A stretch of 37,437 bases of DNA from an uncultured Candidatus Bathyarchaeia archaeon (lineage in GTDB: Archaea; Thermoproteota; Bathyarchaeia; TCS64), in contig CAZZFH010000001.1 of the NCBI GenBank assembly GCA_964653295.1, positions 1 to 37,437 of the forward strand. The letters run 5' to 3'. The translations under genes and the position numbers were made by a program. The notes under the pieces were generated by a model. That model did no database searches and was not told the DNA's origin. It saw only the letters and a list, made by a program, of their open reading frames with translations. This document shows, in pieces, positions 5,740 through 27,895 of the stretch (the first letter of the stretch is position 1; each line of letters begins with the position of its first letter).

Positions 5740-6324
5740 ATACCATCTATCATTCTTTTAACTGGTACTCCTGGGACCGGCAAGACCACCGTAGCCAAGA
5801 TTTTATCCACTGAACTGGATGCGAGACACATTGAGTTATCAGTTTACGCAATGGAAAATGGGTTAATTCTGGAGAATGACGCTGAGAGGGATACACAGAT
5901 AGTTGATATGGATGCCCTTAGGGAATCACTTTTAGAGCTTACAAGCCACACAGAACAGACCATCATAGTCGATGGGCATTACAGCCATGAATTATTTGAT
6001 GTAGAACTGGTGAACCTCGTCATAGTTCTCAGGAAAGCCCCATGGGAGCTATATGATGTACTCCAGAACAGGCTGTACAGCTACGAGAAGGTCTGGGAAA
6101 ACCTAGAAGCAGAGATAATGGGAGTAATCTCAGATGAAGCACAAGAATATCCAAGGGAGAAACTACACGAGATAGATACAACGGGTAAATCTGCTGTAGA
6201 GGCTGCTGAGGATATCTTAGGGGTTATCAGAGGCGAAAAGCCTGCAAGCTTTGGTCCCATCGACTGGGTTACATACCCAGAGACCCTCAGAGTATTGGTG
6301 AACAGGACATGTACTTTATCATAA
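5740..6324 (+). CDS. Fap7/AK6-like adenylate kinase (ribosome-biogenesis NTPase); start assigned to non-canonical ATA 5740
   Basis: The ORF track starts at ATG 5851, but the same frame is open from 5644. It encodes (I)PSIILLTGTPGTGKTTVAKILSTELDARHIELSVYA upstream, which is the Walker A P-loop of this family. There is no ATG/GTG/TTG in frame between 5644 and 5850. ATA 5740 lies 2 nt after the mbf1 stop and about 7 nt after AGAGGA. Confidence 0.75.
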   Translation: MPSIILLTGTPGTGKTTVAKILSTELDARHIELSVYAMENGLILENDAERDTQIVDMDALRESLLELTSHTEQTIIVDGHYSHELFDVELVNLVIVLRKAPWELYDVLQNRLYSYEKVWENLEAEIMGVISDEAQEYPREKLHEIDTTGKSAVEAAEDILGVIRGEKPASFGPIDWVTYPETLRVLVNRTCTLS

Positions 6325-7018: not shown

Positions 7019-7060
7019 CCCTTTTTTCAATATATTAATGAAAATTTTTTAAAAATATAG

Positions 7061-7119
7061 AAAAAAAATGGTTTTCTTGGAGATTTTTTTTGGTAAAAAA
7101 AATGGTTTTTCCATTTTTT
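7061..7119. repeat. AT-rich intergenic motif repeats: AAAAAAAATGGTTTT twice, the second forming a perfect 9-bp hairpin
   Basis: AAAAAAAATGGTTTT occurs at 7061-7075 and 7095-7109. AAAAAATGG (7097-7105), TTTTT, CCATTTTTT (7111-7119) is an inverted repeat. AAAAAATGG recurs at 7189-7197, spanning the ATG of the next ORF. Confidence 0.6.
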
Positions 7120-7193
7120 CTTTACCCAAGACATATAAGCCTTGATTGGTATATATTAGTCGTAACACTTATTAATGGAGTATTTACCAAAAA

Positions 7194-7784
7194 ATGGAAA
7201 TTCAATATGAATCCGAGTGGATGAACCCCACAATAGAGCTTATGAAATGCCTAGGAATTATGGGAAAGCCAATAAGAAACGAGGAGATGGGCTCTATTGA
7301 CTATAAGATTGATAATGATAAGGAAAAAAAATTGATCCGTGCGATAGTGGATAAGAATAACCACGCTGCACCTGTTTATGTTGATGTAATTCGAGGGACA
7401 ATCGAAGAACTTGAAGAAAACAAGTATGATGAGGCAATAATTCTCTCAAAGAGGATAACCAACTCGGCGCATGATCTTGTAGCCAAGATAGAAAATCTGA
7501 GCATAATTACTCCCAACATGAAGAACAACTTCAATCTGATAGAAGTATTATCTGCAATACAGAAAAAAACCATAGATCTTTGCGAGATGAAATGTGGAAA
7601 AGCCCCAGAGACCAAAGAAGACTGTAAGGGCAAGACAGGAAGAAGCTACGAGTGCGATATTCGCAGGATAAGCGATGATGCTACATTCCATGCAACTATG
7701 AAATGGAAGAATGTGCTTTTAGAAGATTTCAACAACCTGTGTGAAGTAGAGAAAGAGATGAAAACCAACCTGGGGGTGAACTAA
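7194..7784 (+). CDS. Hypothetical protein; visibly low-GC, with a C-terminal Cys4 cluster
   Basis: 196-aa ORF. No family recognised. It contains CEMKCGKAPETKEDCKGKTGRSYEC (C-x3-C-x10-C-x8-C). Its last codons contain the GGGGGTGA SD for the downstream eS30 gene. Confidence 0.55.
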   Translation: MEIQYESEWMNPTIELMKCLGIMGKPIRNEEMGSIDYKIDNDKEKKLIRAIVDKNNHAAPVYVDVIRGTIEELEENKYDEAIILSKRITNSAHDLVAKIENLSIITPNMKNNFNLIEVLSAIQKKTIDLCEMKCGKAPETKEDCKGKTGRSYECDIRRISDDATFHATMKWKNVLLEDFNNLCEVEKEMKTNLGVN

Positions 7785-7785
7785 G

Positions 7786-7959
7786 ATACCCACACACGGC
7801 TCGCTTACCAAGGCAGGTAAGGTCAGGTCACAGACACCAAAAGTAGATCGGACAGTTGATCATTCTGGACCAGGACCTATGCGTAAAAATAAGAGGTTAT
7901 ACATCAAACGGATTGTAACTCAGAGCGATAAAAGATATAATGATAGAAGAAGAAGGTAG
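7786..7959 (+). CDS. rps30e: 30S ribosomal protein eS30; start assigned to non-canonical ATA 7786
   Basis: Absent from the ORF track. Hand translation gives (I/M)PTHGSLTKAGKVRSQTPKVDRTVDHSGPGPMRKNKRLYIKRIVTQSDKRYNDRRRR*. HGSLxxAGKVRxQTPKV is the eS30 signature. The frame opens only at 7780 (TGA at 7777-7779). The only in-frame ATG (7879) lies after the signature. Confidence 0.8.
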   Translation: MPTHGSLTKAGKVRSQTPKVDRTVDHSGPGPMRKNKRLYIKRIVTQSDKRYNDRRRR

Positions 7960-8103
7960 AAATTTACTTACTTTTTCTATTCCTATTTTTTAGTGTTTTA
8001 GGTCAAATACCTAAGACTTATAACATACTATTTTCGTTAAAGGGGTAACTTATTTGTTAGATAAGTGGAAATTTCAAAATAGAAAACAATTGAGAGGTGA
8101 CAT

Positions 8104-8307
8104 ATACTGAGAGGCGTAGTTAAGAAATGGTTATACGATGATGGATTTGGATTCATCAAAACAAAAGATACTAAGAAGGATATTTTTTGCCACAGTCGAG
8201 ACGTGAAAAACTGTTATGATCTAGATAGTGGAGATGTAGTCGAGTTCGAGATCGAGAAGACCGATAAAGGCGTAAGAGCCGTCAACGTGAAGATAGTTTA
8301 TAACTAA
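8104..8307 (+). CDS. Cold-shock-domain (CSD/OB-fold) protein; non-canonical start at ATA 8104 or CTG 8107
   Basis: Absent from the ORF track. Hand translation gives (I)LRGVVKKWLYDDGFGFIKTKDTKKDIFCHSRDVKNCYDLDSGDVVEFEIEKTDKGVRAVNVKIVYN*. It has an RNP1-like GFGFI and an RNP2-like IFCHS. The frame opens at 8101 (TGA at 8098-8100). A strong SD, GAGGTGA, sits at 8093-8099. Confidence 0.75.
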   Translation: MLRGVVKKWLYDDGFGFIKTKDTKKDIFCHSRDVKNCYDLDSGDVVEFEIEKTDKGVRAVNVKIVYN

Positions 8308-14608: not shown

Positions 14609-14687
14609 TGGTGCTCCCGCCGGGATTCGAACCCGGGTTCTCCAACTCGAAAGGCTGGAATGCTTGTCCGGACTACACCACGGGAGC
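14609..14687 (-). tRNA. tRNA-Glu (anticodon UUC), genomically encoded CCA
   Basis: The reverse complement GCTCCCGTGGTGTAGTCCGGACAAGCATTCCAGCCTTTCGAGTTGGAGAACCCGGGTTCGAATCCCGGCGGGAGCACCA folds as a cloverleaf. Acceptor stem is GCTCCCG/CGGGAGC, anticodon stem CCAGC/GTTGG, anticodon loop CTTTCGA, and T-arm CCGGG-TTCGAAT-CCCGG. Confidence 0.93.
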
Positions 14688-14779: not shown

Positions 14780-14858
14780 GGGCCTGTAGCTCAGTTTGGC
14801 CTAGAGCACCTGGCTCATAACCAGGGGGTCATGGGTTCAAATCCCTTCAGGCCCACCA
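14780..14858 (+). tRNA. tRNA with CAU anticodon. It is Met by anticodon, but the body resembles archaeal tRNA-Ile, so it may be tRNA-Ile2 (agmatidine-modified, AUA-decoding). CCA is genomically encoded.
   Basis: GGGCCTGTAGCTCAGTTTGGCCTAGAGCACCTGGCTCATAACCAGGGGGTCATGGGTTCAAATCCCTTCAGGCCCACCA. Acceptor stem is GGGCCTG/CAGGCCC, anticodon stem CTGGC/ACCAG region with loop CTCATAA. It is not initiator-like, since there is no AGCGGG 5' end. Confidence 0.9.
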
Positions 14859-16632: not shown

Positions 16633-17829
16633 GTAAAGACTGAGGCAGCGATAATCGGAGCCGGTCCGGCGGGATTACTGGCTGCTGATGTTATTTCTAA
16701 GCATGGTTTTAGTGTTGAGGTTTTTGAGGAGCATGGACAGGTAGGCTACCCTGTTCACTGCGCTGGTATGGTTAGTGTTGAGGGGTTCAGCAGGCTGGGC
16801 ATCGAGATAAAACCTGTTTTCCACCAGAACACGGTTTTCGGGGGAAGGATTTTCTCGAGTGATGGCAGCTGTATTACTATCAGGGACAGGAAACCTAGAG
16901 CCTATATCATTGATAGGGGGCGGTTTGATGCTTATCTCGCTGAGGTGGCTGAGGGTAATGGTGTAAACATCAATACAGCGAGACGGGTTGATCAAGTTAT
17001 CTTCAAGGATGGCGTTGCTACGGGATTGAGGGTCGGGGGCTCAGAGATTGCGTCAAAGATTACTGTTGACGCTGAGGGGGTTTTGGGCAGGGTTCTGTCT
17101 AGATCGGGTGTTTCTACTTGTCAAGTGGGGGTATTGAACGGGTTTAATGTGGAGTTTGATGTGGAAGATATTGAATCTGATATGGTTGAGGTGTGGTTCA
17201 ACCAAGAGACCTCCAAGGACTTTTTCACATGGGTGATCCCGATCAAAGAAAATCGGGTAAGATGTGGCTTAGCTACCTCAAGCAGTGATGGGGTAATGGC
17301 GCTCAAACACTTCATCGAGAAGCGCTTCAATAAAGAACCCTCATCAACAATCCACGGCGGACTCGTATACACAGGGGGACCAGTAAATAAAACCGCTTAT
17401 CCGGGTTTATTGTTGGCAGGGGATGTAGCAGGGCAGGTTAAACCCACCACTGGTGGTGGGGTGGTGATTGGGGGGCTTTGCGCCCACTTAGCGGGGGAGT
17501 TTGGTGCAAAGGCGTTAGGAGAAGATGTTGGTGTGCTTGGTGAGTATGAGAGAGAGTGGCGGAGAAGATATGGCTCTGAGCTTCAGACCATGCTCATCAT
17601 GCGAAGACTGGTTAATGGTTTAAGTGATGACCAGCTGAATAAAGCAGTACACGCCTTTATTGAGGAGGGATTGGACGAGAAATTCACCCACTTGGTTGAA
17701 GAAGGAGACATGGACATGCAGGCAGGTATAATCAAAAGAGCGTTAACTGACCCAGCGATACTAGCTTCTCTCGCACGCTCATTAGGGAGACTCGTGGTCT
17801 CAGAGTTCTTCTCGGCTTTTGGGCTCTAA
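16633..17829 (+). CDS. Geranylgeranyl reductase-family flavoprotein (archaeal lipid saturation); no canonical start codon
   Basis: The ORF track starts at ATG 16768. The same frame is open from 16621 and encodes ...PVKTEAAIIGAGPAGLLAADVISKHGFSVEVFEEHGQVGYPVHCAG, the FAD-binding GxGxxG beta-alpha-beta, upstream of that ATG. There is no ATG/GTG/TTG in frame between 16621 and 16767. Candidate starts are GTA 16633 (after AGGGGGA) and ATA 16651 (5 nt after GAGG). Confidence 0.75.
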   Translation, partial: VKTEAAIIGAGPAGLLAADVISKHGFSVEVFEEHGQVGYPVHCAGMVSVEGFSRLGIEIKPVFHQNTVFGGRIFSSDGSCITIRDRKPRAYIIDRGRFDAYLAEVAEGNGVNINTARRVDQVIFKDGVATGLRVGGSEIASKITVDAEGVLGRVLSRSGVSTCQVGVLNGFNVEFDVEDIESDMVEVWFNQETSKDFFTWVIPIKENRVRCGLATSSSDGVMALKHFIEKRFNKEPSSTIHGGLVYTGGPVNKTAYPGLLLAGDVAGQVKPTTGGGVVIGGLCAHLAGEFGAKALGEDVGVLGEYEREWRRRYGSELQTMLIMRRLVNGLSDDQLNKAVHAFIEEGLDEKFTHLVEEGDMDMQAGIIKRALTDPAILASLARSLGRLVVSEFFSAFGL

Positions 17830-26540: not shown

Positions 26541-27895
26541 CTATGAGAAATTAGATGAGAGACTAGATATTTTCTCAAGTTTCTCCAAGTTGTCAACCTG
26601 CGTGATTATCCTTGAGACCTTATCGCTTGGGAGGGTCATGGATGCGAACGCGGTGAACTTTTCCTTGATGAACTCCAGTGGAATGGGTTGCTTGTCTTCC
26701 TCAAAAAGGTGATAACGTCTACCATCGCGGGTGAATATCTCAAGCCTTGTCCCTATCTTCGTGGGGAAGACCTCATCGATGACTGGATCAATATAAACCT
26801 CGGCTTTCTGCCCAAGCTCAACCACCCGGGGATCAGTGTAACAGTCAAAGAACTCCTTCATGAAAACCTGTCCCTCAACAAGGGCTATGGCAACTGCTAC
26901 TGCAGGGTGATTCTGGGCGTGGAGTGGGGTCTCGGCTACCTTGAGCTGGTTCTCAGCTGTGATGTGGTTCAACCCTATCCTGATCTTTTCTATGTCATCG
27001 ATCTCGATCCCATTCTCTTCCTGTAAGTCCAGCGCCATCTTGATGGGGGGACATAGCTCGTGGCAGCAAGCATAGGGCTTGAACTTGCATTTGAGAATCT
27101 TATAATCCGTGCCCAAGCCCTCGGTTAAACGGTTCAAGTCGTAGCCTTCAGCGTGAGACGCCAATAACCCATACTTTCCCTCGAAAACCGTACAAGGACC
27201 AGTATAGCCCTCACGAGCCAAGAGGGCGGCTAGGACCCCATTCATGGCAGCCTTCCCAGCGTGCAACCGCTTACTCATATCACCTGTGGTCAGCCATTCC
27301 TCTAAACCTGCTGCCTGAGTCCCAGCCAATCCAAAGGCGTTTACCAATTCATCCTCGTTTAACCCAAGCAACTTACCAGCAGCAGCAACTGCACCAATAG
27401 TGCCTACTACGCCTGTTGCGTGGAAGCCCCTGTTCCTGAGCCCGGGATAGACAGCGCTATCGACCCTACAGCTCACCTCATAACCGGCAACCAGAGCCAC
27501 AATAAGGTCTCTACCAGTTACCTGCTCTGCCTCTGCTACTGCTAAAGCAGCGGGTATGATGCATGCTCCCGGGTGTGCCCAGCTGGGGCGTGCCCTGAGT
27601 CATCTGCATCTATTCCATGAGCCATTGTTCCGTTTGCTAGGGCAGCCATTATCATGGGGTATTTTGTTGTTTCTCCGAGTACAGTGGATTGGGGTTCTCC
27701 CTTCATCTGCCGTACAATGTTGATGACCATCTGGCTCCACGGTAATTCGTGGGCGCCTAGGATGTTTCCAAGTGAATCTAGGAGATGCATCTTGGTTTTT
27801 ATTACTACTTCTGGGGCTAGGTCGTTGTACTTGAGTTCTGAAACATATTTGGCGAAAATCCGTGAGTATTCTTCCATATAGACACCGTGCTTCAT
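26541..27895 (-). pseudogene. MmgE/PrpD-family dehydratase gene interrupted by a single frameshift
   Basis: ORFs 27542-27895 and 26541-27500 are the N- and C-terminal parts of one PrpD-fold protein. The upstream frame ends ...AHGIDADDSGHAPAGHTREH...*. The adjacent frame reads ...SWAHPGACIIPAALAVAEAEQVTGRDLIVALVAGYEV, the conserved D.DD...HPG..IIPAALA block. The switch must lie between 27578 and 27599, around a G4/C4 run at 27585-27588. Confidence 0.75.

Follow-up and report, generated by a model that had tools for sequence, protein, structure and literature searches.

The 37,437-nucleotide (nt) stretch analysed here, referred to as the window throughout (contig CAZZFH010000001.1 of GenBank assembly GCA_964653295.1, positions 1 to 37,437 of the forward strand), comes from an uncultured Candidatus Bathyarchaeia archaeon and contains rps30e, the gene of ribosomal protein eS30, with an ATA at the place of the initiator methionine codon. 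We hold with good confidence that this ATA, at 7786-7788, is the genuine translation start of the gene, used through initiation at a near-cognate AUA that is driven by the Shine-Dalgarno (SD) sequence in front of it. Judging from related genomes, one Bathyarchaeia clade has stably inherited this pairing of a weak codon with a very strong SD. The following features define the locus.

7194 to 7784, plus strand: ORF196, an upstream open reading frame (ORF) of 196 residues, whose last codons (..GGG GTG AAC TAA) contain the eS30 SD
7772 to 7779, plus strand: SD GGGGGTGA (GGAGGTGA in relatives), 6 nt 5' of the ATA
7777 to 7779, plus strand: in-frame TGA that closes the eS30 frame and forms the 3' end of the SD
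7782 to 7784, plus strand: TAA stop of ORF196, in a frame different from that of eS30, 1 nt 5' of the eS30 start
7786 to 7788, plus strand: putative eS30 initiation codon ATA; the homologous codon is ATG, TTG or GTG in other archaea
7786 to 7959, plus strand: rps30e coding sequence, 57 codons, stop TAG at 7957-7959
7968 to 7993, plus strand: T-rich tracts (ctttttct, ctatttttt) just 3' of the eS30 stop, a probable archaeal oligo-T terminator as read from the sequence alone

Read directly, the eS30 frame runs TGA ACT AAG ATA CCC ACA CAC GGC TCG, which translates as *TK-IPTHGSLTKAGKVRSQTPKV, and the peptide from ATA 7786 is (I)PTHGSLTKAGKVRSQTPKV... The initial annotation had described an ATA at the conserved Met position, 1 nt past an upstream stop, in a frame closed by TGA and with a later ATG that would drop the N-terminal signature, and this anatomy is borne out. 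The archaeal signature (M)PxHGSL(T/S)KAGKVR, including Pro2, stands directly behind the ATA, a single base (G 7785) separates it from the TAA of ORF196, and the frame is closed at 7777-7779. No canonical in-frame start, whether ATG, GTG or TTG, occurs before ATG 7879 (ORF 7879 to 7959, 26 residues), whose position is occupied by Leu in relatives. The SD had been placed at 7773-7780 and lies instead at 7772-7779, whereas the 6-nt spacer (7780-7785) had been given correctly. A likeness to the spacing before TTG starts holds roughly: GGTGA precedes TTG 3763 on the minus strand by 6 nt and TTG 3873 by 5 nt. The in-frame TGA is no independent coincidence, because any SD ending in GGTGA will, with a 6-nt spacer, bring a TGA into the frame of the start; such a TGA also precedes TTG 3763 and the cold-shock gene at 8107.

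The product is a typical member of its family. Residues 3-48 align with positions 2-50 of the 58 in Pfam profile PF04758, Ribosomal_S30 (E 5.9e-11, 42.8 bits, cut-off 27), the sole NCBIfam family matched is NF006817 (E 2.6e-16, 59.2 bits, below the cut-off of 75 bits), and the tail is rich in Lys and Arg, as is usual for eS30. All but one of 30 inspected homologues begin with MPTHGSLTKAGKVR, and the remaining one, P0022, has MPTHGSLTKAGKVR behind a 10-residue extension. Around the start, the RNA folds no better than shuffled sequences (z = 0.22), and an Rfam scan returned two tRNAs only and no leader element.

The SD is exceptional in strength. It pairs with the archaeal anti-SD through eight base pairs, one of them G·U, and the duplex energy of -14.3 kcal/mol is the strongest among 35 gene starts in the window. 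Each of the ten non-canonical eS30 loci that were measured carries GGAGGTGA, AGGAGGTGA or GGGGGTGA, a complementarity of 7-9 nt placed 5-6 nt before the start, and the predicted duplex energies lie between -14.3 and -15.8 kcal/mol. The mean at the 72 eS30 loci with canonical starts is -7.4 kcal/mol, and just one of them reaches -14.3.

The codon at the Met position was examined at 82 eS30 loci, where we found ATG (63), TTG (8), GTG (1), ATA (8), ATT (1) and GTA (1). With L101 added, this comparison of related rps30e loci for ATA versus ATG places ATA in eight assemblies besides the window (L001-L005, L008, L009 and L101), all from a single Bathyarchaeia clade, within which ATT (L016), GTA (L006) and ATG (L007) also occur. 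The loci were reached by different routes, namely through the upstream ORF for L001-L005, through an NCBI S30e protein for L008 and by a metagenome scan for L009. The closest six, from a species-representative genome collection, are all titled as Bathyarchaeia or Bathyarchaeota metagenome-assembled genomes (MAGs). In a neighbour-joining tree the non-canonical loci all fall into one clade, with L007 nested inside it and L010, which also has ATG, beside it. Because of this single clade, the association between SD and start amounts to about one inherited state plus three single-base changes and not to ten independent events.

Selection on the codons behind the ATA is strongly purifying. Pairwise comparison of codons 2-21 at 11 loci gives 530 synonymous and 82 non-synonymous differences, and codons 2-14 encode an invariant peptide with up to four synonymous codons per site, so the N-terminal signature must be translated. 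The codons between TGA and ATA vary (ACT AAG, ACT AAT, ACT AGG, ATT AAG). Locus L008 is particularly informative: an in-frame TGA stands immediately 5' of the ATA (GTG AAC TGA ATA CCA), which leaves the ATA as the only possible start. This locus has no ORF196 and shows a 190-nt intergenic region after an Lsm gene, and L009 has no long upstream ORF; SD and ATA are kept in both. In L007, on the other hand, the SD is lost, the start is ATG and an AT-rich, TATA-like and thus promoter-like region lies upstream. The GTA of L006 (925-927, on a single 2-kb contig) has as its sole alternative an ATT two codons upstream that abuts the SD. The NCBI pipeline itself starts S30e at this ATA with Met in proteins P0003 (L002) and P0005 (L008). 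The comparative evidence thus supports the earlier view that the ATA is functional and neither an error nor part of a dead gene.

For the eS30 start, we infer the choice of tRNA, the efficiency of initiation and any coupling, and the following mechanism would fit. The gene would probably be read from a bicistronic ORF196-eS30 mRNA; the two ORFs have no promoter-like gap between them. The small subunit would be held by the 8-bp SD:anti-SD duplex (GGGGGUGA), which would bring the AUA, 6 nt further on, into the P site, and initiator Met-tRNA with anticodon CAU would accept this codon although its third position forms a C·A mismatch. The Met would then be removed before Pro. In the structure of the Sulfolobus solfataricus 30S subunit the mature N-terminal Pro2 of eS30 contacts rRNA helix h44, and most archaeal eS30 have Pro2 (PMC11698992). 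Given this contact, the start must sit immediately before CCN, and processing after AUA initiation would leave the conserved proline free to make it. Ribosomes finishing ORF196, whose stop lies 1 nt upstream, may in addition reinitiate at the ATA. In this context, termination-reinitiation coupling has been described for Haloferax volcanii HVO_0685/0686 with an intergenic distance of +1 nt (PMC10666635), and the locus studied here resembles that pair in the +1-nt gap and in a downstream SD lying within the last codons of the upstream gene. It differs in that coupling is deduced here from geometry, and it could not be the sole basis of initiation given L008 and L009: these keep the ATA without ORF196, so that reinitiation is dispensable.

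The closest parallels are bacterial, among them infC with AUU or AUA. In Staphylococcus aureus, infC, ccpN and citZ (AUA) and cvfC1 (AUU) have extended SDs and reach 10-30% of AUG activity in reporters (PMC13009471), and in Escherichia coli AUA, AUU, AUC and CUG starts give 0.02-3% of AUG (bioRxiv 10.1101/063800). The eS30 gene shares with the infC/ccpN type a weak codon conserved across species, an unusually long SD at proper spacing and a product that is translation-related or regulatory; we find no upstream canonical start, a conserved near-cognate codon and an extended SD, with the GTA of L006 as an exception. Unlike the bacterial cases, it belongs to a TACK archaeon with aIF1/1A/2 instead of IF3, and several unrelated genes are involved; moreover, start activity was measured there, whereas here it is deduced from sequence and comes without a known autoregulatory loop. 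By this analogy, an archaeal counterpart of bacterial infC and ccpN appears to be the best explanation of the AUA-start eS30. An archaeal precedent for the SD is the natural start of Pyrococcus abyssi aEF1A, a model strong-SD mRNA with GGAGGUGA, 5 nt and AUG (PMC6237735): the SD GGAGGUGA is the same and the spacer similar (5 nt there, 5-6 nt in the clade), while the codon there is AUG. In S. solfataricus, aIF1 is reported to discriminate against non-AUG codons (PMC6237735), so a weak codon is expected to reduce expression unless the lineage is more permissive. Our literature searches found no account of ATA starts in Bathyarchaeia or other archaea.

Eukaryotes make eS30 from a fusion precursor, FUBI-eS30 (Fau). 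The arrangement described here is similar in that eS30 is produced directly downstream of another coding unit. It is dissimilar in that a stop separates the two ORFs, which lie in different frames, and in that ORF196 is predicted to have no ubiquitin-like fold.

The eS30 gene is not alone in its start. About four of 35 window genes (11%) have a non-canonical one: eS30 (ATA), a kinase-like gene (ATA), a cold-shock gene (CTG) and a geranylgeranyl-reductase-like (GGR-like) gene (GTA). Their SDs rank 1, 2, 6 and 12 of 35 (one-sided Mann-Whitney p = 0.005). The initial annotation had seen the ATA as special because of the expression demand on a ribosomal protein, an argument that is weakened by at least three more window genes without canonical starts. 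These genes and their elements are as follows.

5740 to 6324, plus strand: AAA_18/putative-kinase gene, putative ATA start at 5740-5742
8092 to 8100, plus strand: SD GAGAGGTGA of the cold-shock gene, with TGA 8098-8100 in frame; -11.5 kcal/mol, second strongest in the window
8107 to 8307, plus strand: cold-shock-domain (CSD) gene, putative CTG start at 8107-8109, 6 nt past the SD
16633 to 17829, plus strand: geranylgeranyl-reductase-like flavin adenine dinucleotide (FAD) enzyme, putative GTA start at 16633-16635, with a GGGGG tract 8 nt upstream

The start region of the cold-shock gene reads, after the TGA of the SD, CAT ATA CTG AGA GGC. The Pfam CSD match (E 2e-16) spans residues 3-63 of the translation from 8104, and a start at GTG 8203, the earliest canonical one, would cost the protein both RNP1 and RNP2. 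CTG 8107 is kept in L001, L002, L004 and L005 while the codon before it varies, and outgroups have ATG (L010) or GTG (L095-L099) at this start. The kinase-like gene has its P-loop LLTGTPGTGKTT 5' of the first canonical start, ATG 5851, and AAA_18 profile positions 1-128 are matched only when the N-terminus is included. ATA 5740 is kept in five relatives (L001-L004, L008), and in the NCBI annotation the L008 homologue begins at an Ile codon; the choice between 5734 and 5740 appears less firmly pinned than the eS30 start. Similarly, the Rossmann motif AAIIGAGPAG of the GGR-like enzyme sits 5' of ATG 16768, its earliest canonical start. At the position equivalent to Met, the window has GTA and five relatives have ATA, and a 71% homologue has Met there (MKTEAAVIGAGPAG; ATG in L092).

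Several points weigh against ATA initiation at eS30. The Mann-Whitney p value for SD energy at the eS30 loci overstates their independence, the non-canonical ones being one clade, and the survey is biased, with Met in one of its six search patterns and L001-L006 fetched via ORF196. Copies of rps30e in the source genome were assessed within the window only. The GTA of L006, with two bases unlike those of AUG, does not easily fit simple near-cognate pairing. In L100 a 66-nt in-frame deletion (~1796-1900) removes GSLTKAGKV...TT from eS30, and in L095-L099 a badly diverged eS30-like ORF comes after ORF196 homologues at 42-47% identity. Regarding two of these loci, L100 is otherwise near-identical to L101, from a sister sample, and its deletion may represent variation within the population or a misassembly. 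The diverged ORF of L095-L099 (~1789-1960, before a TFIIB gene; KPMHGSPDKAGGTMSHT.../TPMQDSLDRAGGMIPQTPRVG...) is uncalled by gene finders and may be a decaying or neofunctionalised copy; by its example, an ORF196-linked eS30 copy can decay in some lineages.

A broader reading, which we regard as unlikely, is that the start rule of the clade has been relaxed or altered as a whole, with about one in ten genes lacking ATG, GTG and TTG, AUA and even GUA serving as regular starts, and a changed initiation apparatus. Candidates for the change would be position 34 of the initiator tRNA, the stringency of aIF1, and 30S states that depend on eS26 and eS30. In this reading the AUA start of eS30, a protein of the A site and mRNA entry channel, could contribute to feedback control of initiation fidelity, comparable to that of IF3 and infC. 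Three of the four non-canonical window genes sit behind above-average SDs.

Improbable as well is a lineage-specific mechanism in which position 34 of the initiator tRNA is altered to read A, as with mitochondrial 5-formylcytidine (f5C), or in which adenosine-to-inosine (A-to-I) editing of the mRNA would make AUA and GUA resemble AUG and GUG. It would accommodate GTA at two start sites where relatives have ATA, the eS30 gene of L006 and the GGR-like gene of the window, as well as the predominance of ATA, by far the commonest non-canonical start (three genes), and a non-canonical share (~4 of 35) that exceeds usual leaky initiation. The CTG of the CSD gene and the ATT of L016, however, break a rule of third-position A, and each GTA comes from a single assembly. 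ATG to ATA and ATA to GTA are both transitions, so mutation bias could explain the spectrum, and the window tRNA with anticodon CAT has G1:C72 and hence is no initiator.

We also consider it improbable that the ORF196-linked rps30e is decaying and untranslated, with eS30 supplied by another copy elsewhere in the genome that has a canonical start. The L100 deletion and the strongly diverged ORF in L095-L099 would agree with decay, and the genome beyond the window lay outside the analysis. The deposited annotation of the contig contains no eS30, the best database match being 89% identical, though another protein of the contig is present. Yet a full-length eS30 ORF is kept under strong purifying selection in at least ten assemblies, and the window sequence is a typical eS30, above the Pfam cut-off and with its K/R-rich tail. 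The synteny Lsm-(ORF196)-eS30-TGT is common to the window and L008, where the gene is annotated as S30e. The ATG-bearing gene of L007 shares the downstream TFB-like neighbour, which makes it an ortholog and not a second copy. An ATA with a perfect SD would, finally, not persist in a dead gene.

A programmed +1 frameshift at AAC-TAA, stimulated by GGGGGTGA in the manner of prfB or antizyme, would fuse ORF196 to eS30, in an echo of the eukaryotic FUBI-eS30, and turn the ATA into an internal Ile codon. The eS30 frame is indeed +1 to ORF196, skipping T 7782 gives ...GVN-K-I-P-T-H, the junction GGTGAAYTAR-N-RTA is kept in seven loci, an SD-like element sits just 5' of the stop as in prfB, and the Ile-to-Val change of L006 would be conservative. 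The fusion is nevertheless scarcely credible and largely refuted by L008, with its ATA straight after an in-frame TGA, its 190-nt intergenic region and no ORF196, and by L009, likewise without a long upstream ORF. In addition, re-pairing of tRNA-Asn from AAC or AAT to ACU or AUU fails at the middle position, outgroups carry ATG, TTG or GTG at the homologous codon, and a 196-residue extension conflicts with a free Pro2 N-terminus unless it is cleaved (PMC11698992).

The idea that AUA now encodes Met, as it does in several mitochondrial codes, has practically no chance of being correct: nothing beyond the start-codon usage itself speaks for it, and codon-level alignment of seven window genes with relatives refutes it, internal ATA aligning with Ile 127 times (ATA 79, ATC 27, ATT 21), Val 32, Leu 19 and Met 6 times, ATG aligning with ATG 160 times, and ATA accounting for 2.4% of codons, a share ordinary for an Ile codon. 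Equally negligible is the probability that ATG became ATA through faulty sequencing or assembly, since the one probable 2-nt indel of the window, in an MmgE/PrpD gene, is set against ATA in eight other independent assemblies (NCBI, ENA, JGI). Read-through of the TGA, or TGA as a sense codon, was also rejected: no TGA occurs within genes, and even with TGA ignored there is no canonical upstream start in the window, L006 or L009.

Initiation at the AUA with a strong SD has consequences for annotation, because Prodigal considers ATG, GTG and TTG only (PMC2848648). The eS30 gene is uncalled in the JGI records L100 and L101 of the clade as a result of this limit, and it is absent from the deposited annotation of the window contig. 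The deposited GGR-like proteins of the window contig (P0121, 353 residues) and of relatives (P0122-P0126, 371-383 residues) lack the Rossmann motif. Missed ribosomal proteins and truncated enzymes of this kind distort completeness estimates and metabolic reconstructions of Bathyarchaeia. A near-cognate start with a strong SD is known in itself, and NCBI already annotates the ATA eS30 in sister MAGs; what appears new from the sequences is that near-cognate starts are unusually frequent in the clade. TACK archaea combine SD pairing of the bacterial type with start-codon proofreading of the eukaryotic type (aIF1/1A/2), and the AUA, CUG and perhaps GUA starts of the clade offer natural substrates to study how far an SD duplex overrides that proofreading.

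The upstream gene, ORF196, has no Pfam or NCBIfam match and belongs to a family of 84 homologous clusters, all hypothetical proteins of Bathyarchaeia, with the motif CGKAPET..DCKGK..Y.CD.RRISDDATFHA.MKW and a conserved C-terminal ..EVN. An AlphaFold2 (AF2) model with a predicted local distance difference test (pLDDT) score of 87 gave weak PD-(D/E)xK-like matches in Foldseek (best E 1.2e-3, template-modelling (TM) score 0.36 or less). A homologue of 27% identity adjoins eS30 in a distant archaeon (L055, 1166-1912), which hints at a conserved linkage of the two genes. The intergenic region before ORF196 (7019-7193) contains several oligo-T tracts and TATA-like boxes (tatatatta at ~7151), and its sequence suggests a terminator of the Lsm gene plus a promoter that would give ORF196 a very short leader.

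Two tRNA genes lie further downstream in the window.

14609 to 14687: tRNA-Glu (TTC), divergent to the tRNA with anticodon CAT
14780 to 14858, plus strand: tRNA with anticodon CAT, called Met by ARAGORN, with G1:C72 and a sequence resembling archaeal tRNA-Ile

As a special initiator the second of these was rejected, since G1:C72 assigns it to the elongator Met or Ile2 type, and from its sequence it may be the AUA-reading tRNA-Ile2. Regarding stop codons, TGA ends one of ~36 window genes, compared with 22 for TAA and ~13 for TAG, and mostly occurs as the end of GGTGA ribosome-binding sites. The MmgE/PrpD gene mentioned above (26541-27895, minus strand) is split over two frames: its N-terminal part (27895 to 27542) covers Pfam profile positions 3-96 and the remainder (27599 to 26541) continues from position 95. 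Two surplus bases in a CACAC run near 27573-27577 best account for the join, and the split may mean that the gene is a pseudogene, that strains vary at this place or that the assembly is wrong.

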